Assembly: GCA_041658285.1 (NCBI GenBank)
Contig: JBBAAP010000002.1
Location: 44,252-108,251 of the forward strand
Direction of reading: 5' to 3'
Source: Candidatus Brocadiia bacterium
GTDB lineage: Bacteria > Planctomycetota > MHYJ01 > JACQXL01
Length of the DNA: 64,000 nucleotides
A program made the position numbers and the translations under genes. Below, in pieces: positions 6,353 through 58,582 of the stretch (position 1 is its first letter; each line of letters starts with the position of its first letter). The notes under the pieces are model-generated. The model was not told the origin of the DNA. It saw nothing but the letters and a program-made list of their open reading frames with translations, and ran no database searches.

Positions 6353-6393
6353 TAAAAATTACTTACAACACCCATAAAGTCAAGTATTTTCTC

Positions 6394-6421
6394 TTGACGC
6401 CGGTTGCAAAAAGAATAAAAT
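6394..6421 (+). promoter_or_regulatory. Sigma70-like promoter upstream of ruvC (TTGACG-N16-TAAAAT), with a very short leader
   Basis: TTGACG lies at 6394-6399 and TAAAAT at 6416-6421. The ATG is at 6431, which suggests a near-leaderless transcript. Confidence 0.35.
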
Positions 6422-6430
6422 AGCGCGGAA

Positions 6431-6919
6431 ATGAATCAAAGAATACTCGGCATTGACCCGGGCACGCTGGTAGTCGGATACTGCATCCTTGATATAACCG
6501 GCATTAATAACAAATCCCGGATTGTCGAATACGGCATAGTCAAAGCCTCCACTAAAGATAACAAAGATTTAGGAAGCCGGCTTAACAAGATATACCAGGA
6601 ACTAACCGAGATAATCAAGCTCCACAAACCGACCGCGATGGCGCTGGAAAACGTCTTCTACGCCAAGGACGTCCAGGCAATGGTCAAGCTGGGCGAAGGC
6701 CGGGCCATCGCTATCCTGGCCGCGGCGCAAGCCGGTATCCCCCTCTTTGAATACTCGCCGGCCGAGGTCAAGAAGTCCGTCACCGGCAACGGCCGGGCCG
6801 ATAAGACCCAGGTGGCCGAGATGGTCAAGCACATCCTGGGATTATCCGAAATTCCCAAACCGGCTGACGCCTCCGACGCCATCGCCATCGCTCTCTGCCA
6901 TACCCATCGAACTCTCTAA
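6431..6919 (+). CDS. ruvC: Crossover junction endodeoxyribonuclease RuvC
   Basis: ILGIDPGTLVVGYCIL is the RNase H-like fold with the catalytic Asp. The 162 aa length is typical. Confidence 0.85.
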   Translation: MNQRILGIDPGTLVVGYCILDITGINNKSRIVEYGIVKASTKDNKDLGSRLNKIYQELTEIIKLHKPTAMALENVFYAKDVQAMVKLGEGRAIAILAAAQAGIPLFEYSPAEVKKSVTGNGRADKTQVAEMVKHILGLSEIPKPADASDAIAIALCHTHRTL

Positions 6920-7045
6920 CCACTGAAGGCACTGAAATCACTGAATTCAATCTTGATCTGTGGCTCCGTGGTTATCTTCCTTCCCCTAAAAAATAATTAT
7001 TCGCGCTTTCGTGTAGATTCGTGTTCATTCGTGGTTAAATTTGGC

Positions 7046-7816
7046 TCAGCGGCGTTGCCGCATCACCTCGGCCAGCACGATGGCCGTAGAATGGCTCAAT
7101 GACAGGGACGGCACTTCTTTTGGATTTGCGTGTTTATCCGGATTAAGCGGCATGGGAATGGTGAAAAATCCGCTGCATAATTCCCTGAGCGCACCGGACA
7201 ACCCGCGTTTTTCGCCACCCAACGCCATTACCACCGGCCCGGTGAAATCGATGTCATACATCGTCCGCCGTACCCGGGGCATCGCACCGAAAACCTTGAG
7301 ACCGGATTTCTTCAGTTCGGGCAGGATATCGGATTCCCTTTCCACCTTGACTAACGGCATCCATTCATAAACGCCGGCCGAGGCGCGCGAAACGGCCAGC
7401 TGGTCGAAATTCCAGATATGCTTCTTCAGCAAGACCGCGTCCACGCCTATCGCCCCGGCCGTGCGGAGGATGAATCCCAGGTTCTGCTCGTCTTCAACGC
7501 CTTCCAATAACAGCAGGAACGGAGACACTTTTGACTTCTTTACCAAAGTCAGCAATTCCTCCGGCTTGGTCAGCGGCCTGTTTGAAGCAAGCGCAATCAG
7601 GCCGGCGTGAGTGCCGCCCTTGCTCATCTTGTCCAGCTCTTCCGGCGAACAGGTCTTGACCGGCACGCCCTGCTGTTCGGCCAAAGCAATGACATCCTGC
7701 GTCTTCTCGCGATGAGCGCTCCAGGACACCAGAATCAATTCAAACCTTCTCTGGCGCGCCTGTAACGCCGAAAGAATACACTGTCTGCCTTCAAGTTGTT
7801 CTGACATATCAATCAA
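7046..7816 (-). CDS. TrmH/SpoU-family RNA 2'-O-methyltransferase (RlmB-like)
   Basis: The SPOUT motifs are LLLLEGVEDEQNLGFILRTAGAIGVDAVLL and ALGGEKRGL. Confidence 0.75.
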   Translation of the reverse strand: MIDMSEQLEGRQCILSALQARQRRFELILVSWSAHREKTQDVIALAEQQGVPVKTCSPEELDKMSKGGTHAGLIALASNRPLTKPEELLTLVKKSKVSPFLLLLEGVEDEQNLGFILRTAGAIGVDAVLLKKHIWNFDQLAVSRASAGVYEWMPLVKVERESDILPELKKSGLKVFGAMPRVRRTMYDIDFTGPVVMALGGEKRGLSGALRELCSGFFTIPMPLNPDKHANPKEVPSLSLSHSTAIVLAEVMRQRR

Positions 7817-7993
7817 TCATCGCATTCTTTTATCCGGCTGTCAAGCTTAGCCACGGATTAACACGGATGAATTACAAACACTAATGCACTCGAATAGACA
7901 CAAATAATTTATTATTTTCACTATTTCGGTCTTTCGTGGTCGAAATTAATCTTAATCAATGGCCTCCGTGTCCTCTGTGGCTGAATTGAGCAG

Positions 7994-8947
7994 CTATTTG
8001 GACTTGCCCGACCTGGGATGTGCTTTGTCGTAGACCTCTTTGAGCCGGGTAGTGGTGACGTGGGTATATATCTGGGTGGTAGAGATGCTCCGATGGCCAA
8101 GCAATTCCTGGACGCCGCGCAAATCGGCGCCGTGGTCCAACAGGTGCGTGGCAAACGTATGGCGTAAAGTATGCGGCGATATCTTGCGGTTATTCAGGCC
8201 GCTCAACCCGGCATAAAGCGTGATATTACGCCGGATGCTCCGGTCCGTCAGGTGTGCCGATTTGTGCCGGCTGTGGCTGACGAACAGAAACGAATTCAGT
8301 TCGACCGATTCGCCGCTGATTTGTTTGCGCTCGCTTAGATATTTCTCAATGGCCTTGACGGCGTAACTGCCGATGGGCACCAGCCGTTCCTTTTTCCCCT
8401 TGCCCAGCACATGAGCCACCGAGCTGGACAAATCCACATCCTTGATGCGCAGGTTGGCTATCTCGCTGACCCGCACCCCGCTGCTGTAAAGGAACTCCAT
8501 AATCGCCTCGTCCCGCAGTCCGATGATGCCCGTAGCATAAGCCTTTTTGCCCCTGATGACAGCCAGAGGCTCGAGCAGCATCTTGTTCATCTCCTGCTCG
8601 CTCAGGAACTCCGGTATCTTTTTGTCCAACCGCGGCTGGCGTATCAGAACCATCGGGTTACTTTCGATAAAACGGTTCTGAAGCAAGTACTTAAAAAACG
8701 ATTTAAGCGCGGCAATCTTGCGGGCGATGGACGCCTTCTGCAGGTTCACCTCCCGCATATGGAGCAGATAACTCCGAAGGGTCAGGTTGTCAATGGCCTT
8801 GGGGTCAGGGAAAACTTTGGCGTTACTGCTTTTGGCCACGAAGGTGATGAATTGGTCCAAGTCCTTGGCGTAAGCCCGGAGCGTTTCCGGCGAGTAATTC
8901 CGGTTGTATTGCAGGTGTTCCAGGAAATTCTTAACGTAATCGGCCAT
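7994..8947 (-). CDS. xerC: Tyrosine recombinase XerC/XerD
   Basis: The N-terminal core-binding region is LRAYAKDL. The C-terminal catalytic region is HTLRHTFATHLL...LLGHRSISTTQIYTHV with the catalytic Tyr. Confidence 0.8.
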   Translation of the reverse strand: MADYVKNFLEHLQYNRNYSPETLRAYAKDLDQFITFVAKSSNAKVFPDPKAIDNLTLRSYLLHMREVNLQKASIARKIAALKSFFKYLLQNRFIESNPMVLIRQPRLDKKIPEFLSEQEMNKMLLEPLAVIRGKKAYATGIIGLRDEAIMEFLYSSGVRVSEIANLRIKDVDLSSSVAHVLGKGKKERLVPIGSYAVKAIEKYLSERKQISGESVELNSFLFVSHSRHKSAHLTDRSIRRNITLYAGLSGLNNRKISPHTLRHTFATHLLDHGADLRGVQELLGHRSISTTQIYTHVTTTRLKEVYDKAHPRSGKSK

Positions 8948-9111
8948 AAATATTCTTACTGCCGGTCTTCGATTCTCAGTTATCTTATCGGCAAAAACAG
9001 CCGGTCCGGCTCAGGAATTAGCCGTAAACCAAAATCCGCCGGAACGGCCCGGCGCCATTCCTGCATTAAACGCGCTTTCGCAGAGATATCGGCAATAACC
9101 GGTATTTTTGC

Positions 9112-9140
9112 TTGACAAATTTAATAATATTAGCATTATG
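9112..9140 (+). promoter_or_regulatory. Sigma70-like promoter (TTGACA-N17-ATTATG) for the 9146 gene
   Basis: TTGACA lies at 9112-9117 and a -10-like hexamer about 17 nt downstream. The start codon follows about 5 nt after that. Confidence 0.3.
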
Positions 9141-9145
9141 CAACT

Positions 9146-10225
9146 ATGCGCAGGAAAATAATACTCGCCTTAGGATTGATTGCCTTAATCTCAACCAATA
9201 TAATCTTATCATCGGCCGATGATGCCGAGCTGGCCGGAGCCGTCTACCAATCCGGCCTGAACGCCTTTAAGCAAAACAAGTTCGATGATGCCGCCCAAAA
9301 ATTCGCCCGGGCGCTGGAATACAAAAGCGATTATACCGAGGCTATGTTCAAGCTGGCCGAGTGCCACGAAAAACTCCGTAATAGCCAGCAGGCCGTCCGG
9401 TATTACCGCCAATCGGCCCGGCAGGTTGCCTCCAAAACCGACTCCTCCACGGAAGAACGCAACATCCTCCAGCAATCGCGTAAAGTGCTTGAAAAACTCG
9501 ATGTCCGCGGCACCCAGTTCAATACCGCCAAATCCAAGCAAATTGACATCCTGCTCAAGATGGCCAACGACTGCGCCGGACGAAAGTACTTTGGCTTCGC
9601 CCGCAGGATTTACGAACAGATACTGATTATCGACCCCGGCAACAAAACCGCCGCCGACGCCATGGAAAAACTGGCCGCCGGCCAACCGGTCGAAAGCCCG
9701 GATTCCAAAACCGCCGGCAAGGCCAAATCAGTATTCAACGGCAAAAACCTGGACGGCTGGCAGTTCGACAGCAACATCTGGCTTAACCTCTGGTCTATCG
9801 AGGAAGGCTGCCTGGCATTCAACAAAAAACCCTTGTCGCCCAAGGCCGGACCCAGCCTCGAGCCCAGCGCCCTGAAACTCGCCGGACAACTGCCGGACAA
9901 CTACGTCATGTCAATGGAAATGTTCATCGAAAAGCGCCTGCCGTCCGCGCGCGAATGCTGTATCAGCTTCCTTTACGGCGAATCCAAAATACCACAGGGC
10001 CAGGCCAATATCATCACCATGCAACGGGCCAAGATAAACTTCGAAAAGACCGGCATCTGGGAAAAGATAAAATTTACCAAGAAAGGCAACGAATACGCCA
10101 TCGAAGGCGCCAACACCAAGAAATTCAACGGCGTCTTCGAACCCTACAATACCCAATGCATCGGCTTTTACATCCACGGCTTCGTCGTCAAAATCCGCAA
10201 TATCACCGTCAAGGAAACTCAATAG
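9146..10225 (+). CDS. Secreted protein with an N-terminal TPR-like helical region and a C-terminal DUF1080 (LamG-like jelly-roll / 3-keto-disaccharide hydrolase family) domain
   Basis: It has a signal peptide MRRKIILALGLIALIST, and KSVFNGKNLDGWQF...WSIEEGCLAF matches DUF1080-type proteins. Confidence 0.5.
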   Translation: MRRKIILALGLIALISTNIILSSADDAELAGAVYQSGLNAFKQNKFDDAAQKFARALEYKSDYTEAMFKLAECHEKLRNSQQAVRYYRQSARQVASKTDSSTEERNILQQSRKVLEKLDVRGTQFNTAKSKQIDILLKMANDCAGRKYFGFARRIYEQILIIDPGNKTAADAMEKLAAGQPVESPDSKTAGKAKSVFNGKNLDGWQFDSNIWLNLWSIEEGCLAFNKKPLSPKAGPSLEPSALKLAGQLPDNYVMSMEMFIEKRLPSARECCISFLYGESKIPQGQANIITMQRAKINFEKTGIWEKIKFTKKGNEYAIEGANTKKFNGVFEPYNTQCIGFYIHGFVVKIRNITVKETQ

Positions 10226-10351
10226 GATACTACCCACCAATAGAGTTTCCATCTTTTTTCATCCCTTCGTGCTTTCGTGGTAAAAAAAGGCTGGACTAAA
10301 AATAGTATTCTCTGTGTTCTCCGTGTCCTCAGTGGTTAAATAGCGGCACTC

Positions 10352-10993
10352 TTATCTTAAAAACCTACTCGCCTTGGCGAAAAGATGCACCCAGAGCGGG
10401 CTGGTCCGCCTAATAAGGTGGGCCGATGACAGGTTGTGTTTGAACTCCTGGGCTGATGTAAACGGCTCGATTTCCACGCAGGCCGCCCCGTATTCGGACC
10501 GGGTATGCGCGTCACTGCCGGCCGTAATGACCTTGTTATGAAGTTGTGCAAATCGTCTGGCCTCGTCGTTATCGGCGCTGAAAAGGTTGCGCGCATTGAA
10601 TCCCTCGATGATGTCCACCTGCCCGGCTATCCGTTTCAGGGCCTCGAAACTGAGTCGCGACTTGCGTAGGCGGCAGAACGGGTGCGGCACGCCCACCAGA
10701 CCGCCCTGGGCCTTTATCCGGTTGATGGTTTCCTCCGGAGACAGCCCGGCCGAAATGGGCTGAGTCAGGAAGAATCCGATAATCTCGCCCTCGGCCGTAT
10801 GGATTTCTTCGGACACGATGACCGTAAACCCGGCCGGAGCCATGGCTTTGAGTGCCAGCGCGCCGGTGATGGTATTATGGTCGGTCACGGCCAGGCCGTC
10901 CAGGTGCTTTTGCCGGGCCACCCTAAGGACGTTAGCCAGGGACAGCGTCCCGTCCGGTGAATAATTGGTATGGACATGGCAATCAATCCTCAT
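10352..10993 (-). CDS. PHP-domain metal-dependent phosphoesterase
   Basis: MRIDCHVHTNYSPDG...VTDHNTI is the PHP signature. The start is moved from the table's GTG at 11020 to the ATG at 10993, because that GTG lies inside the conserved intergenic CACGAAT motif. Confidence 0.75.
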   Translation of the reverse strand: MRIDCHVHTNYSPDGTLSLANVLRVARQKHLDGLAVTDHNTITGALALKAMAPAGFTVIVSEEIHTAEGEIIGFFLTQPISAGLSPEETINRIKAQGGLVGVPHPFCRLRKSRLSFEALKRIAGQVDIIEGFNARNLFSADNDEARRFAQLHNKVITAGSDAHTRSEYGAACVEIEPFTSAQEFKHNLSSAHLIRRTSPLWVHLFAKASRFLR

Positions 10994-11317
10994 CGTCCAT
11001 AGATTAACACGAATAAACACGAATGACTACTAATTTAGATATTTAATTTAAGTAAGCGGACCCGCCTGACTGACGCCCACCCGGATGAATATCCGTTCGG
11101 ACGGGTAGTCGGACAGGTTTAGCAGATATTGCAGATAAGTATAAATAATAAGGGCGCTGGGATTAGCCCAGCGCCCACCTTCGTGTCAATTCGAATTTAT
11201 TCGTGCATATTCGTGTTTATTCTAGGTATCCGCGTAACCAAATATTTATCGAAGTGAACACGCCATTCTTTCTTAGTGCTACTAGGAACAACGTGACGTA
11301 GAGGCAGTGCGTAGCCT

Positions 11318-11345
11318 CCTGGAAGGACTTAGATCCAGATGTACC
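11318..11345 (+). terminator. Candidate intrinsic terminator on the plus strand (CCCCGC-cttg-GCGGGG followed by a T-rich tract)
   Basis: A hairpin with a 6-7 bp GC stem is followed by TTAATCTTTTA. Both flanking genes are on the minus strand, so it would terminate an unannotated plus-strand transcript. Confidence 0.3.
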
Positions 11346-11447
11346 CCGCCTTGGCGGGGTTAATCTTTTATCATCTGAACAGAGCCTATTAGGAACAGTT
11401 CGACCAACGGGAGTTACTGTCCCTTATCCCGAGCGTAGTCTCGGGGT

Positions 11448-12572
11448 CTATTCAATGTATCCCTTAACCCATATGTTCGTAGATGTGAACACACCCGATT
11501 TGGTTATCAGCACCTTAATCATCCGTGTCCCATCAGTGGCAAGAGTGGCTTCCTTATACGCATTATTATTCACCCCTACCGTGTTCTGCCATATAAAATG
11601 TATAGTACTTGACCCATAATCCGCACCGGACCGTCTGCCAAGAACCGTGAGTATCTGCTCCATCCCGACCGGGACGCTCATTGCGTTCAACTGCATCTCC
11701 AATATTACAGCAGTCGCCGTAACCGGAATCACCGCCGACAGGTCTATGAGCTGGTCCACATCCGTCATCGAGTTCTCGGAGAACACCAAGGTTTGAGACG
11801 GCAACAGGGTCAACTGCATCCCGCCCGCACCGCCGGTAGGCGGAGCTATCCAATTGAATTTACCCGTCGCCGCATCGAAAGACAGAATCTGCCCGTCCGT
11901 AGGCGGAGCCAGGTTATAGAGCAGTTCGTGGTTGATGGATGCCAGCGCAATCTTGACCCAATCAACGGCCCGGTCGGCAATCTTTCCGTTGGTAATACTT
12001 GTCTCTGCCAACTTGTCTCCGGTCACAGCCAGGTCTGCTATCTCGTCCGTCGCCACTGGCGGAACGAGCGGCCTCGTGACACCGCCAGCCATCGGTTTCC
12101 ATTCCAGCTTGAGTTGTGCCGCATTGTATGTAGGAACCTCACCGTCTGCCGGAGAATCTATCGCCGCTAATTTGGTCGGGGTGACTTCGCCCGCGCCGAT
12201 TTTGGATGAAGTAACCGCGCCTTCGTTGAGTTTGATGGATGTAACCGAGTGGGTGTCCAATTTATCAGGGGTTATGGCGCCATCGGCGATTTTCTGAGCC
12301 ACTATCGCCCCATCGGCTATCTTAGCCGTACCAACGGCATTATCGGGCAAAGGCGTAAGGGTAATGTCCGGACCGAGCTTAGCCGCGGTCACGGCACCGT
12401 CGGAGATATCATCGGTCTGGACCTGCCCGGCTCCGATATCGGCTCCGGTAATGGTCTCATCCTTAATCTTAGCCGTGGTCACGGAATTATCGGCAATCTT
12501 ATCTTCCGTGACTGCCTGTTCCGAAATCTGGGGCGAGGTCACCTCGCCATTTGCGTATCTGTGTCTGAACAT
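11448..12572 (-). CDS. Phage tail-fibre-like repeat protein: about 12 tandem ~11 aa repeats (consensus I-x-D-G-A-V-T-x-x-K-I/L) with a C-terminal globular head domain
   Basis: The repeats run ...AVTAAKLGPD...AVGTAKIADGAIVAQKIADGAITPDKLDTHSVTSIKLNEGAVTSSKIGAGEVTPTKL. The start is set at the ATG at 12572, preceded by the Shine-Dalgarno sequence AAGGGGG. The ORF-table start at 12662 covers the motif region. Confidence 0.5.
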   Translation of the reverse strand: MFRHRYANGEVTSPQISEQAVTEDKIADNSVTTAKIKDETITGADIGAGQVQTDDISDGAVTAAKLGPDITLTPLPDNAVGTAKIADGAIVAQKIADGAITPDKLDTHSVTSIKLNEGAVTSSKIGAGEVTPTKLAAIDSPADGEVPTYNAAQLKLEWKPMAGGVTRPLVPPVATDEIADLAVTGDKLAETSITNGKIADRAVDWVKIALASINHELLYNLAPPTDGQILSFDAATGKFNWIAPPTGGAGGMQLTLLPSQTLVFSENSMTDVDQLIDLSAVIPVTATAVILEMQLNAMSVPVGMEQILTVLGRRSGADYGSSTIHFIWQNTVGVNNNAYKEATLATDGTRMIKVLITKSGVFTSTNIWVKGYIE

Positions 12573-12730
12573 ATAGTTAACCCCCTTTTTAACACGAATT
12601 ACACGAATAGGACTAATCCCGCTAATATTTTTTATTCGTGCCCTTCGTATTATTAGTAACATTCGAGTTCTAATTAAAGTGCGGTCGGGGACGCCCCGCC
12701 CGTGCGAAGCGTCCCACTCGCACTGCCATA

Positions 12731-13531
12731 CTAAATCAGCACTATCCTTGCCCTGAGTTTGAGCGCGCCGCTGTTGACGTCGCTTTCATACTGGAGCACA
12801 GAATCAGTGGCCGTACCTCCAACCACGAACGGTTTTACCGTTGCAGCCTTGAAGGAATTAGCCAGGTCAGTCAGCCTGGTGTTCTGGGCGGCCAGTTCGG
12901 TCGCTTCCATATCCGCCTTAATAATTGAGATGCCGGTAATAACCAGCAAACTCGTTACGGCTGACTTGAACTGCTGTCTCAATCCAGTTTTGGTGAAGTC
13001 GTAAGGCCCGCCGTTGACAACCTCCATATGGTTGGTCATCCGGTTGGCCCGGGCATCACCGGTCATCCAATAGGTAACCTGCGGGACAATCAAACCCCTG
13101 ATTCGGTCCCCGGTAATCCTAAGGAGTCCCTTAGCCACGCCATTGGCCCAACGGTCCTTGGCCGCGTTTACCTTACCTTTAAAGAGCTTAGCCACTACAC
13201 CATCAATGGTCTCGAAAGCCTGGTCCAGGTGCTCCCGAAACTTGGCATAGGCGTTGGTCAAGCCCTTGTAATGGGCCTGACGGATGTTAGATGCGCTCCG
13301 ACCCGACTTAGCCACGAACCCCGGCGCAACCATAGGTCCCCATTTCTGGTTGCCAGGTTCCGCGACCTTTGACTGGTATTCCCCGTCATCGGGCAGAATC
13401 TCCACTATCCGATCGTGCATACGCTGGGCGTTGTTAGTCAAACCCTCAACCCACCGGTCCGGCATATCGCCCGACGGCTCAATGCTCGGAGGTATCGTTA
13501 CCAAAATATCCAGTTTAATTTCGTCTGCCAT
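12731..13531 (-). CDS. Hypothetical protein co-oriented with the fibre-like gene, possibly structural
   Basis: This 266 aa ORF has the RBS GTGAGG. I recognise no motifs. Confidence 0.35.
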   Translation of the reverse strand: MADEIKLDILVTIPPSIEPSGDMPDRWVEGLTNNAQRMHDRIVEILPDDGEYQSKVAEPGNQKWGPMVAPGFVAKSGRSASNIRQAHYKGLTNAYAKFREHLDQAFETIDGVVAKLFKGKVNAAKDRWANGVAKGLLRITGDRIRGLIVPQVTYWMTGDARANRMTNHMEVVNGGPYDFTKTGLRQQFKSAVTSLLVITGISIIKADMEATELAAQNTRLTDLANSFKAATVKPFVVGGTATDSVLQYESDVNSGALKLRARIVLI

Positions 13532-16087: not shown

Positions 16088-16576
16088 GGGTTATAGGGGT
16101 ACTCCATACCCCTAATCCCGGTTATCGACACAACCTATAAGGATTATCAACATCTACAGTCCCGGTTATTGACACCCCTAATACCGGTTATCAATATTCC
16201 TAATCCCGGTTATCGATACCCCCAATCCCGGTTATCGATACCCCTAATCCCGGTTATCAACATCCCTAATCCCGGTTTTCGATACTCCCTGCCTAAGTAA
16301 CGGTTATCTCCTATACCTGTTATCGATATCCCCTGTCCGGGTTTATCACACCTCCTATATAAATGGCCTACATCCCCTATCCGGGTTTATCACTCATCCG
16401 ATATAAATGGCCTACATCCCCTATCCCAGTTATCGATACCCACTACCCGAGCAGTAACCATCTCCTATACCGGTTTTCGATACACCCTATGCCCGTTTTC
16501 GATACACCCAATCCCGATTTACGATACAGGGATTAGGGGTTAGGGGGGAGGGGGGTAGGTATCTCCCCCCCCTCCA
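16088..16576. repeat. Degenerate tandem array of about 19 units of a 22 bp repeat (consensus CCTAATCCCGGTTATCGATACC, palindromic core TATCGATA), ending in a G-rich inverted repeat (GGGATTAGGGGTTAGGGGGGAGGGGGG...CTCCCCCCCCTCC)
   Basis: Direct reading shows units adjacent with no spacers. The central units are near-identical and the flanks degenerate. The array lies between the convergent anti-sigma and GT2 genes. Confidence 0.9.
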
Positions 16577-29469: not shown

Positions 29470-29613
29470 ATTTTACTAAGTTTCAACCACGAATGTACAC
29501 GAATAAACACTAATATTATTTTTATTTTAACCGCGGATTATACTAATTTTACTGATTATTATTAATTTGTAATGTTACAAGTCTCTTTAAAGTCACTGTT
29601 ATATTCAATCTGA

Positions 29614-37748: not shown

Positions 37749-38366
37749 TTATCCCTTGCGCACCATCAATAACTTATTAATCGCCGATTGCGTCCGGAGC
37801 GGGAATCTCCCGGCAATCCGCCTTAGTTCTTTCCTGTCCAGCCGGCCTAACGACAGCGAATTTAAATCCGGACGATATTTGCCGATGGAATAGAGATAGA
37901 GCGTATCTGCCAGAGCCTTTTCCGGCGTAGCGATAAAAATGCCGTCTTTTTTGACAAACCCGAAGTAAAGCCGTTTTTTCAGTTTGTAGTAGTTAAAGGC
38001 AACGCCTTTGATGTCATATTTGATGGAACGCTTAAGCGCGGCGCTTTCCGTAAAATTGCGCTGGACCTGGGTGGTCATGTCATAAATCCCCAGGGCGGTC
38101 ATAAATGAAATATAAGACGGCACCTGGAGAAAATTGGCGGCCTTTAAAAGCTCTTCAGACGATACATCAGCCCATTTCTGGGAAAAAGCGTAGACATTAT
38201 TTTTTAGCCGGGTGAATATGCCGTTTTTTACGTACCGGCTGCAGAGAACCCTGATTGATGCCGGCTTTATGCCCAGGACTCTTTGGAGTTCGACCGGGGT
38301 AAAATACATTTTTGACTGCAATGACGACAATTTGGGATAATTCATATTAACCCGCTTCTTCCGCAT
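37749..38366 (-). CDS. abiEi: AbiEi-family antitoxin / transcriptional regulator
   Basis: It is about 200 aa and sits immediately upstream of abiEii. It has an N-terminal winged-helix-like region. Confidence 0.55.
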   Translation of the reverse strand: MRKKRVNMNYPKLSSLQSKMYFTPVELQRVLGIKPASIRVLCSRYVKNGIFTRLKNNVYAFSQKWADVSSEELLKAANFLQVPSYISFMTALGIYDMTTQVQRNFTESAALKRSIKYDIKGVAFNYYKLKKRLYFGFVKKDGIFIATPEKALADTLYLYSIGKYRPDLNSLSLGRLDRKELRRIAGRFPLRTQSAINKLLMVRKG

Positions 38367-38554
38367 CTCATACTATGTATGAAAAAACAGCCATTCGTAA
38401 TCCCGGACCCAGGTGCCGGCATAGCGGCCATAACCATATTTATGGCAATTATGGTAAACATACTTAATTAACGTTTTTGTTAACTATATATTCTTAGTAA
38501 AATATGTCAATAAAAACTGAATTATGCGGAGAACCTTAATTTTACCACGAATTG

Positions 38555-39094
38555 TCACGAATGTTGCTTAAATGAAGGATGCTTCTTGTCCTTCTCCGAT
38601 ACCAGAGGGTTCTGAACCGGCCAGGCGATGGCGATATCCGGGTCGTTCCAAATAATTCCCCGGTCGTTGGCGGGCGAGTATTCTTCCGTACACTTATATA
38701 TCACGTCTGCCTGGTCGCTCAGCACCACGAACCCGTGCGCAAACCCGGCCGGCACATAGAGCATCATCTTGTTCAGCTCGGACAATTCGGCGCTGACCCA
38801 TTTGCCGTAGGTCGCGGACTTCCTGCGGATATCCACGGCCACGTCCCAGATCGCCCCCTTGACGCACCTGACCAGCTTGCCCTGCGCCTTGGGCGATTTC
38901 TGGTAATGCAAACCCCTTAATACGTTCCTGATTGAGTAAGAATGATTGTCCTGCAGGAAGTGCTCGGGTATGCCCATCGCGGTAAACTCGCTGTGCTTGT
39001 AGGTCTCGATGAAGAACCCGCGGGAGTCGGCAAAGACCTTGGGCTCGATGAGCACGACCTCGGGGATGGATAGTTTGGTAAAATTAAAACTCAT
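38555..39094 (-). CDS. rfbC: dTDP-4-dehydrorhamnose 3,5-epimerase
   Basis: It has the cupin fold motifs RGLHYQ, GKLVRCVKGAIWDVAVDIR and GFAHGFVVLSD. It is 179 aa. Confidence 0.9.
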   Translation of the reverse strand: MSFNFTKLSIPEVVLIEPKVFADSRGFFIETYKHSEFTAMGIPEHFLQDNHSYSIRNVLRGLHYQKSPKAQGKLVRCVKGAIWDVAVDIRRKSATYGKWVSAELSELNKMMLYVPAGFAHGFVVLSDQADVIYKCTEEYSPANDRGIIWNDPDIAIAWPVQNPLVSEKDKKHPSFKQHS

Positions 39095-39245
39095 AGTTAC
39101 CTTTCACCACAAAGGACACTAAGGACACAAAGAATACTTTTACATTTTCCCCATTCGCTAAGTTTACCCTGAGTATTATCGAAGGGCTCAGTGAGACTAC
39201 GCTCTCTATGATATATAGTCTATCGTCTTTTGTCTTTTTCCGAAA

Positions 39246-39443
39246 TCACATCTTCATCAGCCGGTCGACCATTTTCCTGAACGGTTTAGCCCGGTGGTTG
39301 ATAAATTCGTTATATTGGGTAACAAATTCCAGGTAGCTATCAACCCCGGTTTTACGGTTTTTGAAGGGATTATGCCGGTTTTTTGCTACCGCCCGCATGT
39401 CACGGGAAATAGCCGTTTGCTCAATCGTTTTAAGGGAAATCAT
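39246..39443 (-). CDS. Small basic protein (65 aa), downstream partner of the nucleotidyltransferase
   Basis: It overlaps the upstream gene by 4 nt (ATGA). I recognise no motifs. Confidence 0.3.
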   Translation of the reverse strand: MISLKTIEQTAISRDMRAVAKNRHNPFKNRKTGVDSYLEFVTQYNEFINHRAKPFRKMVDRLMKM

Positions 39444-40009
39444 AGCCCGTAACTCCGGTATAGTTTATTATATACATTGGCCATTTCAAACATGCTAAAA
39501 TACTTCTTTAACAACTTCCAGTCAAGCTTATTTCTATGGAGCGACATCAGCGCTTCGATATCGGGCAGGTCCTGCTTTTGGCGGACGGGGTCGTTATTGA
39601 TGGCCTGAAGTTTCAGGCCGATGATGTCTTCGGGCTTCAATACCCTGATTTTAAGCGCTCCGTTGAATATCTCTTTCTTACCGGCCCGTTTGAGCATCCC
39701 CAGGCTGACCGGGCGAAAGGCATACAAAAAGTCCACCTCGCCAAAAACATTCAAGTCTGAAACATATTGCCCCACGTTCTCGGTCTGGAAACGGCATTGA
39801 TAGCCGAGTTTCTTCATAATGACGTCAATTTGGTCGATATCGTCCCGGTCGGCCAGGAAATCTATATCCACGGTAGACCTCCCGGCGCCCCACAGCCCCA
39901 TGGCAAAACCGCCTATCAGCGCGTATTTGACACCTGACCGATCAAAGGCGACCAGCAGTTTCTGAAGCACTAATTTGAAGTCCATATATTTAGCCCTATT
40001 TTTAACCAC
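39440..40009 (-). CDS. Nucleotidyltransferase-fold protein sharing the AbiEii-like GG..A..L....R.S.DIDF motif
   Basis: IGGFAMGLWGAGRSTVDIDFLADRDD. The length is 189 aa. Confidence 0.55.
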   Translation of the reverse strand: MVKNRAKYMDFKLVLQKLLVAFDRSGVKYALIGGFAMGLWGAGRSTVDIDFLADRDDIDQIDVIMKKLGYQCRFQTENVGQYVSDLNVFGEVDFLYAFRPVSLGMLKRAGKKEIFNGALKIRVLKPEDIIGLKLQAINNDPVRQKQDLPDIEALMSLHRNKLDWKLLKKYFSMFEMANVYNKLYRSYGL

Positions 40010-40138
40010 GAAAGCCCGAAAAACTAAAAATTACTTTTATTCAACAGGGACTGAACGAGACCTTACTTTTTACAAGTCTCTTTATAGTCTATTTAAGTCC
40101 ATGTTAACACTATTCAGTGGCTTCAGTGCTCTCAGCGG

Positions 40139-41020
40139 TTATATTCCTTTGTTAAGAAATTTCTCCAGATATTGGCCGTAGGAGCTCTTTTTCAACGGTT
40201 CTATCAGTTTCTTAAACTGTTCTTTATCTATATAGCCCAATTCATAAGCCAGTTCTTCGACGCAGGCAATCTTCTGTCCCTGCCTCTTTTCGATAATAGC
40301 AATGAACTCGCTGGCCTCCAAGAGGTTCTCGCAGGAGCCGGTGTCCAGCCAGGCCGTTCCGCGGCCCAATAATTCCACCCTCAAAGCATTCTTCTTGAGG
40401 TATTCGCGGTTGACGTCGGTTATTTCCAGCTCGCCCCGGGCCGAGGGCTTGATGGACTTGGCTACCTTGACCACATTGTTATCGTAATAATACAGGCCGG
40501 TGACGGCGTAGTTTGATTTAGGATGCGCGGGCTTTTCCTCTATTGACAGCGCCTTGCCGGACTTGTCAAAATCGACCACGCCGTAGGCGACCGGGTTCTG
40601 GACGTAATAGCCGAATACCGTGGCGCCACGCTGAGCTTTGACATCGGCCACCACCCGCTTCATCAGGTTGGTCAGCCCGTGCCCGTAAAAGATGTTGTCG
40701 CCCAGCACCAGGCAGACGTCGTCCTTGCCGATGAACTCTTCACCGATGAGAAACGATTCGGCCAGACCCTTGGGCTGGAGCTGTTCTTTGTAGCTGAGCT
40801 TCAGGCCCAGGTGCGCGCCGTCGCCGAAGATAGCCTTGAACCGGGGCAGGTCCTGGGGTGTGGAGATTATCAGGATTTCCCGGATGCCGGATATCATCAG
40901 GATAGACAAGGGGTAGTATATCATCGGCTTGTCGTAAACGGGCAATAACTGCTTGCAGACGGCCTGAGTGATGGGATAGAGCCGGGTGCCGCTACCGCCG
41001 GCTAAGATGATACCTTTCAT
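40139..41020 (-). CDS. rfbA: Glucose-1-phosphate thymidylyltransferase
   Basis: [18 protein letters not shown]...[17 protein letters not shown] is canonical RmlA. It is 293 aa. Confidence 0.9.
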
Positions 41021-41095
41021 TTTATGCTCCTAACTTTTAGTACACAGATTAACCTGATTTAGCTGATAGTTTATTTCCCAGTTAAATCAACCCTG

Positions 41096-41371
41096 CTAAA
41101 TCCTTTGTGAAACTATTTTATAAACTACGGAGCGGTGCAAAATAGCCAAAACCCATACCTCGTTTTTGTTTACCTTATAAACAACCCGGTAGTCCCCGAC
41201 GCGCAGTTTCCAGTATCCACTCAAGGGCTTGCGCAGGGGGTGCCCGTATTTTTCTGGTTCAATGGTCAGCCGCGTTTCTATGGCGGTTGATATCCTGACA
41301 CGGGCGGTCTTGTCAATCGCCGGGATGTCGCTTTCCTTAACCTTATGGTGGTATAAAATTGTATAGGCCAT
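41096..41371 (-). CDS. RelE/ParE-family type II toxin
   Basis: It is 91 aa and has the RelE/StbE-like core GYWKLRVGDYRVVYKVNKNEVWVLAILHR. Confidence 0.75.
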   Translation of the reverse strand: MAYTILYHHKVKESDIPAIDKTARVRISTAIETRLTIEPEKYGHPLRKPLSGYWKLRVGDYRVVYKVNKNEVWVLAILHRSVVYKIVSQRI

Positions 41372-41378
41372 ATAGCCG

Positions 41379-41609
41379 TTATTTGGGAAATACCTGCCGG
41401 TGGGTCAGGGCTTTCTTGCGGTTAAATGTCCGCTCGCGCTCTTCGGCAACGCCGGTCAAGACTACGTCCTCGAAGTATTCAAGGCTCATACTGACCAGGT
41501 CCCGGACTTTATAAGAAAGCGAGACTCCGTCGTCATGGGCTAATTTTCTTATGGCCTGGTAAATGGGACGGTCTAAGACTACATTTATTCTGGGGTTCTT
41601 GGCTGACAT
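41379..41609 (-). CDS. Ribbon-helix-helix (CopG/ParD-like) antitoxin
   Basis: MSAKNPRINVVLDRPIYQAIRKLA is the RHH beta-strand and helix. The start is at the ATG at 41609, preceded by the Shine-Dalgarno sequence AAGGAG. The ORF-table N-terminal extension is unlikely to be real. Confidence 0.6.
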   Translation of the reverse strand: MSAKNPRINVVLDRPIYQAIRKLAHDDGVSLSYKVRDLVSMSLEYFEDVVLTGVAEERERTFNRKKALTHRQVFPK

Positions 41610-41748
41610 ATTAATGACTCCTTTCAACTGTAGTGTTACACTTCTGTAACACCTTGTCAAGAAATATTCAGTCATAGATTAGCATATATTTAACCACAGA
41701 TTAACACGAATAATAACGACTCCCGAAATAAATCTGTGTAATCTGTGG

Positions 41749-43314
41749 CTACGCGTATTTTCCTCGAAGTTCACGGTAGAGCGTTTTGCCGCTGGCCGTC
41801 CGGGGAATATCAACAGACTTGATAAAAACGACGCTCTTGGGCTTTTTATAGGCCGCCATCTTGTCGCGGCAGTAATCGATTATCTCTCTCTCGGTAGAGG
41901 TCTGACCTTCTTTGAGAACTATAAACGCCTTGACCGATTCACCCCATTTGTCGTCGGGCACGCCGATGACGGCGGATTCGAAAACCTTGGGATTGAGGGC
42001 CAGCGCCTCTTCGACCTCGGAGGGATAGACGTGCTCGCCACCGGTGATGATCATATTGTCCTTGCGGTCGACCAGGTAGTAATAGCCGTCGGCATCCTTT
42101 TTGGCCATATCGCCGGCGCTGAACCATTGGCCTTTGAAAACGGACTTGGTCTTGTCGGGCAGTTTGTAGTAGCCGTCAAAGAGCATCGGGCCGCGGGAAT
42201 AGAGCTCGCCCACCTGCCCGGCCGGCAGTTCCTTACCGGCGGAGTCGAGTATCTTGATGCGGTCGGTGCCGATGGATTCCTTGCCGATAGAGCCGGCCTT
42301 GCTGAGCTGTTCTTCAGGCCTGAGGATGGTGACAATACCGGCCTCGGTGGAGCCGTAGCCTTCGTAGAGCCGGGCGTTGGTGAAATATTCCATCACCCGC
42401 TTCTTGATTTCGCCCCGGGCCGGCGCCGAGGAGCACAACAGCTTGTTTATGGAGGACACGTCGTATTTAGCCCGGACATCGGCCGGCAGGCCGAGTATCA
42501 GGTTGTAATGGGTGGGGATGAGCGAGATAAAGGTGGCCTTTTCCCGGGCGACGATACCCAGGATTTCTTCGGGGTTGAAGTTCCGGGCCGGATGGACGTA
42601 GATACCGCCGCCGATATAGGTGAAGGTGAACGAGAAATAGGTGGTGTTAACGTGGCAGAGCGGCATAACGTTGAGGCAGATATCGTCCGGCCGGAAACTG
42701 AAATCACCGGCGTTTATGAGGTAGAATGCAATATATGATTCGTGCGACCGGAGCACGCCCTTGGGCTTGCCGGTGGTGCCCGAGGTATAGAGCAGAACCC
42801 AGGTGTCTTTGGGGTCGACCCGAATGCCGGGGTCCTTGTCCGGCGCGCTGTTCAGCCAGGATTCGTAATCAGATAAATTAGAGATTTGAGATTTGGAATG
42901 CGGGATATGGGATTTTATCTCAATGTAATGTTTTATTTGCGGCAGCTGCGGCTTTATTTGTTCAATCAGCGGAATGAATTCATCGTGGACGAAGAAGGCC
43001 TTGCTGTCGGCGTCGGCGGCGATGTAGGCGACGTCGGCCGGGCTAAGCCGGAAGTTTATGGGGTTGATGACGATACCGGTCCGGGCGCAGGCCAGATAGA
43101 GCTCGATGATTTCCAGGCAGTTTTCCAGCAGGCAGGAGACCTTGTCGCCCTTCTTGAGCCCCAACCCGAGCATGGCGTTGGATAATTTATCAATACGGGT
43201 GTTAAGCTGACTGAAGGTCAACAGCCGGGACTTGTCCTTAAGCGCCATCCGGTCCGCATACTTGGCGGCGTTGACCCGGAGCGTCTCGGCTAAGTTAAGC
43301 CATAATGCTGACAT
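41749..43314 (-). CDS. AMP-dependent synthetase/ligase (acyl-CoA or acyl-carrier ligase)
   Basis: It has the AMP-binding motif LYTSGTTGKPKGV, plus the GYGSTE and GEL motifs. Confidence 0.8.
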   Translation of the reverse strand: MSALWLNLAETLRVNAAKYADRMALKDKSRLLTFSQLNTRIDKLSNAMLGLGLKKGDKVSCLLENCLEIIELYLACARTGIVINPINFRLSPADVAYIAADADSKAFFVHDEFIPLIEQIKPQLPQIKHYIEIKSHIPHSKSQISNLSDYESWLNSAPDKDPGIRVDPKDTWVLLYTSGTTGKPKGVLRSHESYIAFYLINAGDFSFRPDDICLNVMPLCHVNTTYFSFTFTYIGGGIYVHPARNFNPEEILGIVAREKATFISLIPTHYNLILGLPADVRAKYDVSSINKLLCSSAPARGEIKKRVMEYFTNARLYEGYGSTEAGIVTILRPEEQLSKAGSIGKESIGTDRIKILDSAGKELPAGQVGELYSRGPMLFDGYYKLPDKTKSVFKGQWFSAGDMAKKDADGYYYLVDRKDNMIITGGEHVYPSEVEEALALNPKVFESAVIGVPDDKWGESVKAFIVLKEGQTSTEREIIDYCRDKMAAYKKPKSVVFIKSVDIPRTASGKTLYRELRGKYA

Positions 43315-43400
43315 CAGAAATACCTTTTTAGTAAGCGGATTAAGCTGATTTCACGGATAATTCTCAATCTGCAATTTGAAATCTGTAATCTCCCGTCCTC

Positions 43401-44729
43401 CTAGGCCTTAACTATCCTGCTTCTATTCTTGGTAACATTCTTGGTGGCGTTACGGCTGTCTATGACCAGCCGGCTGTTGTTGACTATCAACTGATAGTCG
43501 TAGGCGGTGTGGTCGGTAGCGATGACCACAGCGTCGTATTTCCTGAGCATCGGCACGGTCAGCTTTTGGGACTTGAACGGCGGCAGTTTGTAGTGCCTGA
43601 GTTCGGGCAGAGCCGGTATGTGCGGGTCGTTATACTGGACCCGGGCGCCCTTTTCCATAAAGAGCTCTATCAGCTTCAGGGCCGGCGATTCGCGCATATC
43701 GTCGACGTCTTTCTTGTAGGCCACGCCAAGGATGAGAATGCTGGAACCCTTGAGCGATTTGCCCAGATTGTTGAATTTCTCGGCGGTCTTGTTAACGACA
43801 TAATAAGGCATAGCCAGATTGACCTCACCGGCCAGCTCGATGAACCTGGTGGGCGTCTCGTACTGGCGCGCCTTCCAAGACAGGTAAAACGGGTCGATGG
43901 GGATGCAGTGCCCGCCCAAGCCGGGGCCGGGATAGAACGGCTGGAATCCGAATGGCTTGCTGGAGGCGGCGTTGATGACCTCCCAAACGTCGATGCCCAT
44001 CTTGTCAAAAAGCACCTTGAGCTCGTTGACCATAGCTATATTGATGCAGCGGTAGATATTTTCCAGCAGTTTGGTCGATTCAGCGGCCCGGGTCGATGAG
44101 ACGGGTACGACCTTCATAACCACCGCACCGTAGAGCGCCTGGGCCAGGACGCGGCTGTCCGGGTCGTCGGCGCCGACCACCTTGGGTATCTTTTCGGTAG
44201 AGTATTTAGCGTTGCCAGGGTCTTCGCGTTCAGGCGAAAAGGCCAGGAAGAAATCCTTAGCCGCCTTGAGCCCGGTCTGCTCCAGTATGGGCAGGCAGAC
44301 TTCGTCGGTGGTGCCGGGATAGGTGGTGCTTTCCAGGACGACCAGCTGTCCCTTGCGCAGGGTCCGGCGGATGGTCTGGGTGGTGTTGACGATGTATGAC
44401 ATATCCGGGTCGCGCATAATGGTCAACGGCGTGGGCACGCAGATGATGATGGCGTCCATATTCTTGAGCTGGCCGAAATCAGTCACGGCCTTGAACCCGC
44501 GCTTGAGCCTGATATCGTTGATGCTTTCAGCGGTAATATGCTTGATGTAAGACTTGCCGGCGTTCAGAGCGGACACCTTTTTATGATCGATATCAAACCC
44601 GGTCACGGGGAATCCGCGCAGTGCGAAGAGCCGGGCCAGCGGCAGGCCAACATAGCCCATGCCGATAATGCCGACTTTGGCTTTGCGTGTCTTTATCCGA
44701 TTCATCAGGTTGGCGGCTAACGGTTTCAT
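43401..44729 (-). CDS. UDP-sugar 6-dehydrogenase family (UDP-N-acetyl-D-mannosamine/glucosamine dehydrogenase-like)
   Basis: It has the N-terminal Rossmann VGIIGMGYVGLPLA and the catalytic Cys region GGHCIPIDP. The start is set at MKPLAAN. The ORF-table start at 44792 adds 21 aa that are probably spurious. Confidence 0.8.
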   Translation of the reverse strand: MKPLAANLMNRIKTRKAKVGIIGMGYVGLPLARLFALRGFPVTGFDIDHKKVSALNAGKSYIKHITAESINDIRLKRGFKAVTDFGQLKNMDAIIICVPTPLTIMRDPDMSYIVNTTQTIRRTLRKGQLVVLESTTYPGTTDEVCLPILEQTGLKAAKDFFLAFSPEREDPGNAKYSTEKIPKVVGADDPDSRVLAQALYGAVVMKVVPVSSTRAAESTKLLENIYRCINIAMVNELKVLFDKMGIDVWEVINAASSKPFGFQPFYPGPGLGGHCIPIDPFYLSWKARQYETPTRFIELAGEVNLAMPYYVVNKTAEKFNNLGKSLKGSSILILGVAYKKDVDDMRESPALKLIELFMEKGARVQYNDPHIPALPELRHYKLPPFKSQKLTVPMLRKYDAVVIATDHTAYDYQLIVNNSRLVIDSRNATKNVTKNRSRIVKA

Positions 44730-58437: not shown

Positions 58438-58582
58438 ATAAGTTATGTAAGCGGATTTAGCTGATTTATCAGATTTAGAACCATCGGCTTAATCTGCTTA
58501 ATCAGCTTACTAAACAGGACAAAATATGACAAGAAATGTAGTGCAATGTTGCAGGATAGGACAGGCTATGGCACTGACCAGT

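Follow-up and report, generated by a model that had tools for sequence, protein, structure and literature searches.

The window analysed here, a 64,000-nucleotide (nt) stretch of the genome of a Candidatus Brocadiia bacterium (Planctomycetota), carries in many of its intergenic spacers short arrays of the heptamer CACGRAT, read as TTCGTG on the opposite strand. One such site, at 10994-11030 (cgtccatagaTTAACACGAATAAACACGAATGACtactaat), stands upstream of a minus-strand PHP-domain gene, 14 nt from its ATG, and comparable arrays stand beside genes for RuvC, SpoU, the rmlA and rmlC products and toxin-antitoxin components. These repeats are interpreted, at a probability of roughly 0.6, as the arms of a modular palindromic element family resembling repetitive extragenic palindromes (REP) or miniature inverted-repeat transposable elements (MITEs), and not as transcription-factor operators. 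A sequence-only reading of the same stretch had suggested a small REP/MITE-like repetitive element, which proved right in kind: the arrays are the terminal arms of inverted-repeat modules that occur across phyla and in phages and that are associated with a nuclease gene.

Heptamer arrays in the window

Phased heptamer pairs are strongly enriched in the window. The pattern CACNRA-N3-4-CACNRA occurs 21 times against an expectation of 0.44; none of 200 second-order Markov simulations gave more than 3. Of these 21 matches, 19 are intergenic, in a window whose non-coding DNA amounts to 7.7%. The intergenic excess over chance that the sequence-only reading had anticipated is therefore borne out in the window. 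Two matches (56617 and 57310) fall inside an open reading frame (ORF) of 1818 aa and are probably unrelated to the element family. The heptamer CACGRAT itself was found 29 times, compared with 15.8 +/- 3.7 expected, a count reached in none of 100 shuffles, and ACACGAAT was found 8 times where 1.8 were expected. Furthermore, intergenic DNA is 16-fold richer in CACGAA/TTCGTG than coding DNA, and ACACGAA has ten intergenic occurrences and no coding one.

The periodicity is equally evident. Autocorrelation of the intergenic DNA of the window peaks at lags 9, 10 and 18, and Tandem Repeats Finder independently reported arrays of period 9-10 at 6921, 7008, 10304, 11006, 11180, 29488, 39108, 43332, 58450 and 58483. 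All the sites listed in the sequence-only reading are present, exactly where they had been placed or a few bases away. The 10-11 bp spacing reported for them stood as far as the 10-bp phasing is concerned; within the window, however, period 9 is as frequent as period 10 (12 cases against 9). Phased pairs reach 3.3 per 10 kb in the window, compared with 0.24 in 1.2 Mb of unrelated loci. Arrays occur at roughly one per 3 kb and are clustered at 6.9-12.7 kb and 29.5-43.4 kb; none was found in the 10-kb flanks of the window, and an Rfam search of the whole window returned no match at the gathering score.

Arrays of this kind could represent binding sites of a regulator or nucleoid-associated protein, either of the OmpR/PhoB type or an MraZ/AbrB-like oligomer reading three boxes 10 bp apart, in which case they would control the adjacent genes or structure the chromosome. 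Such a protein would account for the 10-bp phasing, the three boxes, the conserved heptamers and the free spacers, and several arrays are located 13-21 nt upstream of start codons. The operators of MraZ are built from three or four short boxes that contain GTG and recur every 10 bp. The distribution of the arrays nevertheless renders this explanation quite improbable. Arrays are also located at gene 3' ends and at convergent junctions, and they lie outside or upstream of recognisable -35/-10 elements without overlapping them. Five of six divergent promoter-only regions of the window contain canonical TTGACA-N16-17-TAnAAT promoters and no arrays, while the genes that do adjoin arrays are functionally unrelated. 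The density of the arrays, their fast gain and loss between relatives and the presence of several heptamer subtypes within one genome likewise disagree with a regulon. The OmpR/PhoB-type operator envisaged from the sequence thus retains the expected spacing, but neither promoter overlap nor a coherent, conserved regulon was found.

An extended -10 promoter, suggested by TGGTTAAAT/TGGTAAAAT at the arm ends, was also considered and rejected, as the same ends run antisense into gene 3' ends and recognisable TTGACA-N16-17-TAnnnT promoters are located elsewhere. DnaA boxes, dif/XerD arms and CsrA GGA sites show a partial likeness by eye that is not general across the copies.

Paired arms, termini and hairpins

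An array reading CAC-N-R-A on the plus strand is here called a C-arm, and one reading T-Y-N-G-T-G a G-arm. Arms in the window consist of two to three heptamers (CAC-N-R-A-T) spaced 9-10 bp apart, with AAC preceding the outermost one. In intergenic regions that contain both types, the C-arm always precedes the G-arm, so that all pairs of the window are convergent (TTAACCAC...GTGGTTAA); what had appeared to be free-standing direct repeats are instead the two arms of convergent inverted pairs. Since the two arms face each other, either strand is able to fold back on itself. The loop between them ranges from 0 to 480 nt, and the inner units degrade to ACTAAT- or CGAAT-like remnants before giving way to an AT-rich loop. 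Spacers between heptamers are purine-rich with no other constraint, whereas the outer terminus is conserved as (T)TAAC-C. The GGTTAA ending described earlier is present, but as one side of this conserved outer terminus, AACC...GGTT. About ten pairs are present in the window, along with six unpaired arms, none with an internal ORF. Its heptamers are heterogeneous (CACTGAA, CACGGAT, CACAAAG, AGCTGAT), and further variant units of the AGCGGAT/AGCTGAT/ATCTGC kind occur at 11111-11138, 41040-41067, 43330-43393 and 58447-58510.

Paired arms form long imperfect hairpins in which the element termini are the outermost pairs, with z-scores between -2.9 and -5.5 in seven elements of the window. The position of the motif relative to start and stop codons had been left to be examined by the sequence-only reading. 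With the outermost CAC or GTG as reference, the distances of the outer ends are 1, 1, 1, 12, 14 and 17 nt for stop codons and 13-21 nt for six start codons; a sigma-70-like promoter (7844-7816; 38510-38483) is interposed between arm and start codon in another two cases. Spacers of the same operons that lack arrays measure 23-43 nt. Taken together with the short flanks of the elements, these lengths make an element resemble an insertion into an ordinary intercistronic spacer.

Intrinsic terminators were rejected as an explanation of the stems, which end in TTAAA/TAAAA rather than in T-runs, and no terminator-like site coincides with the arms. Such sites show no enrichment in the two regions scanned, 6800-12800 (8, with 7.1 expected) and 38300-43500 (3, with 6.4 expected). 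A true terminator (11152-11176) lies inside Element 4, described below.

Canonical form in metagenomes and phages

An exact-pattern scan with AACCACGAATNNNCACGAAT retrieved at least 120 metagenome contigs and 47 stretches of a viral collection. The GC content of the inspected array-bearing metagenome contigs spans 0.44-0.66. Among the matches listed, to which all figures of this paragraph refer, arms are most often of three units (164 arrays), followed by two (110), four (8) and five (1), and the heptamers are spaced by 10 nt in 359 cases, by 9 nt in 78 and by 11 nt in 11. The consensus arm is ttAAC-CACGAAT-GRA-CACGAAT-RRA-CACGAAT. Residues before the first CAC are A (0.81), A (0.81) and C (0.92); the heptamers and the AAC terminus are 80-100% conserved, and heptamer positions agree at 0.8-1.0 between the two arms (AACCAC...GTGGTT). 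The third unit, which the search pattern left free, follows the consensus at 54-73% even so. By contrast, arm-to-arm identity at the first two spacer positions in every unit (0.48, 0.31, 0.31, 0.33) equals what composition predicts (0.46, 0.35, 0.29, 0.32). Arrays that neighbour each other at a distance of up to 150 nt form convergent arrangements in 51 cases, divergent ones in 7 and tandem ones in 40.

The conservation of heptamers and phasing with free spacers, rather than of a continuous helix, argues for sequence-specific recognition by a protein, and the excess of convergent over divergent neighbours (51 against 7) indicates that polarity belongs to the element itself, beyond hairpin formation alone. 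Several of the array-bearing viral contigs belong to real phages and carry terminase, portal, capsid and tail genes. In one of them, L227, the order between co-directional structural genes is stop codon, C-arm, A-rich loop, G-arm, Shine-Dalgarno sequence and ATG.

This arrangement bears directly on the possibility that the elements are RNA structures useful to the host, that is, intercistronic stem-loops acting as RNase III-type processing sites, 3' or 5' stabilisers, or coupling and decoupling devices, with the conserved sequence being secondary. Precedents exist in the stem-loops between phage T7 genes and in REP-stabilised mRNAs. The significant hairpins of the window, the outer ends lying flush against stop codons and ribosome-binding sites, and the identical geometry in L227 are all consistent with it, as is the better folding of the sense strand at 12585-12665, 40000-40140 and 41685-41752, a signature of G-U wobble. 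Over 16 tandem contexts, however, sense and antisense folding energies are alike (9 against 7; Wilcoxon p 0.26), so that the wobble signature of selection at the RNA level is absent. In addition, the spacers do not covary and the variable fourth heptamer position covaries weakly between arms; the polarity is fixed, with the CAC arm 5' and the GTG arm 3', though the reverse order would fold as well; about six unpaired arms of the window are unable to form a hairpin; no U-tract follows the stems; and array positions are not conserved in the closest genome fragment available, L003. An RNA-level function is accordingly considered rather unlikely.

A different layout was observed in the viral loci L208, L242, L246 and L209/L248, where outward-facing arrays (...ATTCGTG x3-GTT) are separated by a partly palindromic spacer of about 30 nt (e.g. 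CCGGTTTTTCCGAGGATAAGAAGAA) from AAC-CACGAAT x3. These arrays are flanked by contiguous period-7 CCACNRA runs (CCACCGACCACGAACCACCGA), lie upstream of genes and have a polarity opposite to that of the usual element; the arrangement looks like a distinct regulatory or origin-like region. In several metagenome loci (L101, L143, L153 and others), ORFs run into the arms and end there, giving C-termini such as ...TTNEHE, ...TTNGHE and ...FVSIRG, because CACGAATGA provides a stop codon in two frames. A search of a plasmid collection with the consensus element gave no match, possibly on account of low-complexity filtering. A full-text literature search found no description of these arrays, which does not prove that none exists.

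Association with the GxxExxY nuclease gene

Convergent pairs with a separation of 370-410 nt surround an ORF of about 130 aa encoding a GxxExxY protein (PF13366, PDDEXK_3), and all-against-all clustering of the neighbouring ORFs identified GxxExxY as the sole family enriched beside arrays. The association was also recovered from the opposite direction. In eight of eight independent loci that were picked by the protein and not by the repeat, the gene stands between an upstream C-arm and a downstream G-arm, within 0-130 nt. These loci comprise L252; L253/L254, whose protein is named Humisphaera (Planctomycetota) by NCBI; L255/L256, with a protein named Anaerolineae (Chloroflexota); L257/L258, with a protein named Desulfomonilia; and the four viral contigs L261, L262, L263 and L264. 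In L253 and L255, the only CAC-type arrays within 6-8 kb are those beside the GxxExxY gene.

Gene and arm are closely interlocked, as the start codon is often located within the arm (CACGA-ATG-AAC-ACG-AAT, protein MNTN...) and the ORFs begin with MNTN or MDTN. The heptamer subtype varies among loci (CACGAAT, CACGAAG, CACGAAA, CGCAGAA, CGCNAAA), but at each locus both arms share the same subtype, and the terminus AACC...GGTT is retained. The genes appear as co-directional inserts among housekeeping genes, for instance between PGK and Rpe, TsaD and thiolase, or aminotransferase and amidohydrolase. A convergent CACGAA/TTCGTG pair was also observed at 2445-2513 of L257, inside an annotated 951-aa SNF2-helicase gene that stands beside a PglZ gene, a context resembling BREX (bacteriophage exclusion); either the gene as called extends across an insertion, or coding sequence can contain arrays.

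The predicted structure of the GxxExxY protein is that of a compact, minimal PD-(D/E)XK nuclease (pLDDT, the predicted local distance difference test, 95) with invariant D69, E79 and K81. Among solved structures, the closest folds are those of Cas4 SSO0001 (E 4e-5), lambda exonuclease, RecE, a tRNA-splicing endonuclease and the catalytic domain of a homing endonuclease; a sequence search of the PDB gave no match. More than 7,900 homologues were scored in a single search. The sole functional statement on the family found in the literature is "unknown... multiple transfers" (PMC3424549).

Relatives, turnover and mobility

L003, mentioned above, encodes a RuvC 80% identical to that of the window, and four aligned blocks over syntenic genes show 81-89% nucleotide identity. 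L003 carries arrays of the same kind, namely TCTCTGTG x3 followed by GTGGTTAG, CTTTGCG x3 followed by GCGGTAAAA in the RuvC leader, and ATCCG-type units. No array position is common to L003 and the window. The unpaired arm of the RuvC leader is present in L003 and absent from the window, though the promoter around it is conserved. Heptamer arrays also occur in the planctomycetal L004 and L005, whereas no CACNRA arrays were found in Brocadiaceae, Anammoxibacter, Omnitrophota and Nitrospirota loci. The next homologue of the PHP protein after an identical one shares only 59% identity. Two related viral contigs form a filled/empty pair, in which a 75-nt insert with an unpaired arm is present in one of the two and no target duplication is seen.

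The RuvC promoter of the window (6385-6433; TTGACG-N16-TAAAAT) ends just 9 nt before the ATG, which implies a leaderless or near-leaderless mRNA. Its -35 side is conserved in L003, where a 40-nt leader containing the array follows instead. The SpoU, XerC/D-like, TPR and PHP genes are absent between RuvC and the next gene of L003 (L003 8790-9330), a 434-aa ORF, and similarity to the window restarts near window position 11262. The window therefore has, at about 6920-11260, an extra 4.3 kb with those four genes and with heptamer elements at both borders, and this segment may be an inserted or deleted island.

Such a segment invites a further explanation, in which the elements are site-specific recombination sites bounding exchangeable modules, like integron attC or Acinetobacter pdif, and the folded palindromes would be the substrate of the XerC/D-like recombinase encoded at 7994-8947 or of a comparable enzyme. 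The elements are indeed imperfect palindromes of variable length whose outer triplets, AAC...GTT, are best conserved, and several ends fit RYYYAAC/GTTRRRY (ATTTAAC...GTTAAAT; 7034-7040, 10335-10341 and 41690-41696). They start at or just past stop codons, and the units that they delimit resemble cassettes: rmlC, a module of two genes (65 and 181 aa, the 181-aa product with NTP_transf_5/AbiEii-like matches), rmlA, and a RelE gene with its 98-aa upstream partner. The recombinase-bearing 4.3-kb segment, absent from L003, has arrays at its borders. However, the recombinase scores as XerC/XerD (326 and 313 bits), against 127 bits for integron integrase, for which the cut-off is 265. The arrays are dispersed rather than forming a single co-oriented cassette array beside attI/intI, the arms are direct-repeat triplets and not R/L box pairs, and the same arrays occur in phage structural operons. 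Recombination sites of this type are therefore judged very improbable, and integron attC in particular was rejected on the integrase score and the dispersed distribution.

Interpretation and implications

Altogether, these results describe a dispersed modular family of inverted repeats with rapid turnover, defined termini and a strict three-by-ten architecture, whose ORF-less copies occupy intercistronic spacers in the window and whose ORF-bearing copies carry a predicted nuclease. The window copies behave like REP/REPIN (REP doublets forming hairpins) or MITE-type insertions in that they sit in short spacers, share no common interior and differ from those of the nearest relative. The full form of the element is the convergent pair around the gene for the GxxExxY (PF13366) PD-(D/E)XK nuclease. 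A more tentative proposal, which we regard as possible rather than probable, is that the phased arms are the cis-acting ends of a previously unrecognised selfish or mobile class whose enzyme is the GxxExxY nuclease. The gene-bearing cassettes would then be autonomous, and the thousands of ORF-less hairpins in Planctomycetota, Chloroflexota, Desulfomonilia, phages and the window might be their REPIN- or MITE-like dependants.

Mechanistically, the 10-bp phasing, the conserved boxes and the free spacers suggest that the heptamers are recognition sites of a protein. The phased heptamers would be read on one face of the DNA, or in a folded hairpin or cruciform, by a sequence-specific oligomeric protein, for which the GxxExxY nuclease, acting in trans, is the best candidate. 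Break-and-repair events of a homing-like kind, which would leave no target duplication, might spread or maintain the copies. Insertions would be tolerated if hairpin folding re-joins the upstream stop codon and the downstream ribosome-binding site.

Several observations weigh against this interpretation. The GxxExxY gene is absent from the window, its 10-kb flanks, L003-L005 and 437 kb of array-bearing viral stretches, so any action on the window copies would need to be in trans. The link to the nuclease is one of co-occurrence, and GxxExxY cassettes could equally home into pre-existing hairpins. Mobility is deduced from just two presence/absence differences, the leader arm of L003 and the viral filled/empty pair, and no target-site duplication was seen at that pair or at the flanks of the pairs inspected. 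No transposase was found between convergent arms in 1.1 Mb of array-bearing loci, where the ORFs covering most of the interval were judged by eye and without a family search. The interiors of the window copies, when compared, showed no common sequence apart from a 20-nt module (29575 and 40070). The lack of a transposase, of target-site duplications and of a common interior means that the elements are not classical MITEs. The mixed heptamers of this genome are difficult to square with a single specific binding protein, the taxonomic range rests on few named metagenome-assembled genomes, and arrays with the same geometry in compact phage genomes could instead serve a function in gene expression.

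The element combines an unusual build and a broad distribution with a testable tie to a large protein family of unknown function. If the element interpretation is correct, it explains a conspicuous intergenic feature of the poorly studied Candidatus Brocadiia and of many soil, sediment and phage genomes. It would also provide the first testable functional context for GxxExxY/PF13366 proteins, in parallel to the way in which flanking REPs revealed the RAYT (REP-associated tyrosine) transposases. Should the nuclease itself prove to be the enzyme, a very large family would gain a function and REP-RAYT a nuclease-based counterpart. The strict 3 x 10 bp build offers a concrete substrate for binding and cleavage assays. 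From a practical viewpoint, the arrays mislead motif-based regulon prediction, can break assemblies and are a likely widespread source of spurious or altered protein ends in annotations.

Individual elements along the window

Element 1 (6917..6975, plus strand) starts on the RuvC stop codon and consists of a C-arm at 6917-6946 (TAACCACTGAA x3, period 9) and a G-arm at 6956-6975 (ATCTGTG, CTCCGTGGTTAT), folding on the plus strand at -16.7 kcal/mol (z -2.9). It is followed by an unpaired minus-strand arm of four units at 7000..7040 (TTCGCG, then TTCGTG x3), which ends in the terminal GTGGTTAAAT, reads TTTAACCACGAAT... on the minus strand and is located 12 nt past the SpoU stop codon. Element 2 (7849..7982) extends from 14 nt past the stop codon of the XerC-like gene to immediately upstream of the SpoU -35 box. 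Its C-arm (7849-7905) comprises CCACGGAT and CACGGAT and decays through CACTAAT, CTCGAAT and CACAAAT; inner G-units follow at 7924-7940, and the G-arm lies at 7963-7982 (CTCCGTG, CTCTGTGGCT). The minus strand of 7845-7990 folds at -38.1 kcal/mol (z -3.9).

A weak element at 10231..10282 (CCCACCAAT ... CTTCGTG, CTTTCGTGGTA) lies in a region whose overall fold is not significant (z 0.0). Near it, an unpaired three-unit arm on the minus strand (10308..10341; CTCTGTG, CTCCGTG, CTCAGTGGTTAAAT) is located 17 nt past the PHP stop codon. Element 4 (11004..11223) has its C-arm at 11004-11034 (TTAACACGAAT, AAACACGAAT, then CTACTAAT) and its G-arm at 11179-11223 (TTCGTG, TTCGAA, TTCGTG, TTCGTG). Between the arms lie 150 nt that include, besides the intrinsic terminator at 11152-11176 and another hairpin, an array of the ATCTGC type (11111-11138); on the minus strand, 10990-11240 folds at -85.5 kcal/mol (z -5.5) with both arms paired. 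Element 5 (12589..12667), 20 nt upstream of the start codon of a 374-aa gene, combines a C-arm at 12589-12626 (TTAACACGAAT, TACACGAAT, GACTAAT, CGCTAAT) with a G-arm at 12634-12667 (ATTCGTG, CTTCGTA, ...). Its minus-strand fold (12585-12665) has a z-score of -3.95, and none of 200 shuffles was equally stable.

The second cluster begins with three unpaired C-arms on the plus strand. The first (29484..29514; CAACCACGAAT, GTACACGAAT, AAACACTAAT) lies 18 nt upstream of the start codon of an NTP-transferase gene. The second, of two units (38543..38562; TACCACGAAT, TGTCACGAAT), overlaps the rmlC stop codon and is located about 30 nt upstream of the -35 box of the strong sigma-70-like promoter at 38510-38483. 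The third (39104..39135; CCACAAAG, GACACTAAG, GACACAAAG, period 9) stands about 13 nt upstream of the rmlC start codon and is the GGACAC variant that had been noticed near 39103-39130. Element 9 (40002..40142) extends from 1 nt past the rmlA stop codon to 21 nt ahead of the next start codon, with a C-arm at 40002-40031 (TTAACCACGAAA, GCCCGAAA, ...) and a G-arm at 40112-40142 (ATTCAGTG, CTTCAGTG, CTCAGCGGTTAT); the minus strand of 40000-40140 folds at -40.7 kcal/mol (z -4.1) with the outer ends paired. A variant C-arm on the plus strand (41040..41067; CACAGAT, TAACCTGAT, TTAGCTGAT) lies upstream of the rmlA start codon. Element 11 (41690..41751) reaches from 1 nt off the stop codon of a 521-aa gene to 19 nt ahead of the start codon of the 98-aa gene, with a C-arm at 41690-41720 (TTAACCACAGAT, TAACACGAAT) and a G-arm at 41732-41751 (ATCTGTG, TAATCTGTGGCTA), and its minus strand (41685-41752) folds at -22.7 kcal/mol (z -5.15). 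The 98-aa gene had been labelled a ribbon-helix-helix antitoxin, a label for which a family search gave no match.

Two variant pairs complete the inventory. The pair at 43330..43393 (AGTAAGCGGAT, TAAGCTGAT, TTCACGGAT ... AATCTGC, AAATCTGT, AATCTCC) does not fold stably (z -0.1), which weakens its membership of the family. The other, in a divergent intergenic region at 58447..58510 (GTAAGCGGAT, TTAGCTGAT, TTATCAGAT ... ATCGGCTTA, ATCTGCTTA, ATCAGCTTAC), folds on the plus strand of 58440-58520 at -24.6 kcal/mol (z -5.2).

Other repeats of the window and its relatives

The 20-nt module TTACAAGTCTCTTTA(A/T)AGTC, found at 29575-29594 and 40070-40089, occurs inside or beside heptamer elements in two otherwise unrelated intergenic regions. 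A further repeat, a long and degenerate tandem array, spans 16088-16560, within a convergent intergenic region of 682 nt. It has a period of 22 nt (scored at 44 and 66 nt as well), a consensus of about AATCCCGGTTATCGACACCCCT and roughly 18 copies. It terminates in G-run/C-run sequence (gggattaggggttaggggggaggggggtaggtatctccccccccctcc) and, having no spacers, is not a CRISPR array. A second 22-nt array at 58584-58919 (CCTACACCTCTACTACCTCCGG; 15.3 copies, 89% matches) occupies most of an ORF at 58546-58980, and its period means that it cannot be a simple in-frame protein repeat. A third array of this period was observed in L003 (11560-11660; CCAATCAATGACCTCATTAACC), so that 22-nt arrays may be a trait of the clade.

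In addition, a second dispersed repeat family, unrelated to the heptamers, is present at 11240-11447, 57392-57567, 59060-59177 and 63041-63226 of the window, at 8875-9130 and 9200-9330 of L003, and at 9900-10000 of L260, with differing contexts in the window and L003. It consists of hairpin modules such as TTAGGRACAGT-N14-ACTGTCCCTTATCCCG-N-CGGG and GGGCTGTTAGA-N-ACAGCCCAGTATA...CTGCCAGAGTATA.

Comparison with known systems

The elements share individual features with several known systems. MITEs with subterminal repeats likewise possess terminal inverted repeats with several putative protein-binding sites, insert between genes and exist as small ORF-less copies alongside ORF-bearing relatives. 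In contrast to MITEs, the heptamer elements lack target-site duplications, a conserved interior, a uniform size and a DDE transposase (none was found).

The cyanobacterial STRR (short tandemly repeated repetitive) sequences and the TAACTGA repeats of Beggiatoaceae are also abundant intergenic direct repeats of heptamers, of unknown function and patchy across phyla. They occur in 2-6 copies and commonly stand just a few nt upstream of a start codon. Both kinds are contiguous, with period 7, face forward with respect to the ORF downstream and are hardly ever inverted; a single inverted case is described in PMC4679880. The heptamer arrays differ in their period of 10 and in their convergent inverted pairs.

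The intervening sequences (IVS) of 23S rRNA similarly place an inverted-repeat stem around a small ORF of a large, horizontally spread family, and their insertion is tolerated since the stem restores the continuity of the host RNA. They are, however, sited in rRNA helices and carry PF05635 four-helix-bundle ORFs, whereas the heptamer elements lie between protein-coding genes and are associated with PF13366. Integron attC sites resemble the elements in being imperfect palindromes that vary in length, are positioned directly past ORFs and have outer triplets conserved as AAC...GTT. The heptamer elements have neither an integron integrase nor a single cassette array, and their internal boxes are built differently.

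The closest analogue in logic is the REP/REPIN-RAYT system. Its short, high-copy extragenic repeats also lie between tandem or convergent genes, often as inverted pairs that form long hairpins, and the two systems have in common the absence of target duplications, a conserved terminal tag and a candidate mobilising gene flanked by inverted repeats. The defining REP features nonetheless all fail in the heptamer elements. Neither the window nor its flanks include a Y1 (HUH) RAYT gene among their annotated genes. A REP unit is an imperfect palindrome of 20-40 nt, whereas a single heptamer arm consists of three phased direct repeats without a palindrome, and the terminal tag is AACC in place of GTAG or CGTC. 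Unlike REP/REPIN, the heptamer family is spread over several phyla and phages, and the gene associated with it encodes a PD-(D/E)XK nuclease (PF13366) of about 125 aa, where RAYT is a Y1 (HUH) transposase.

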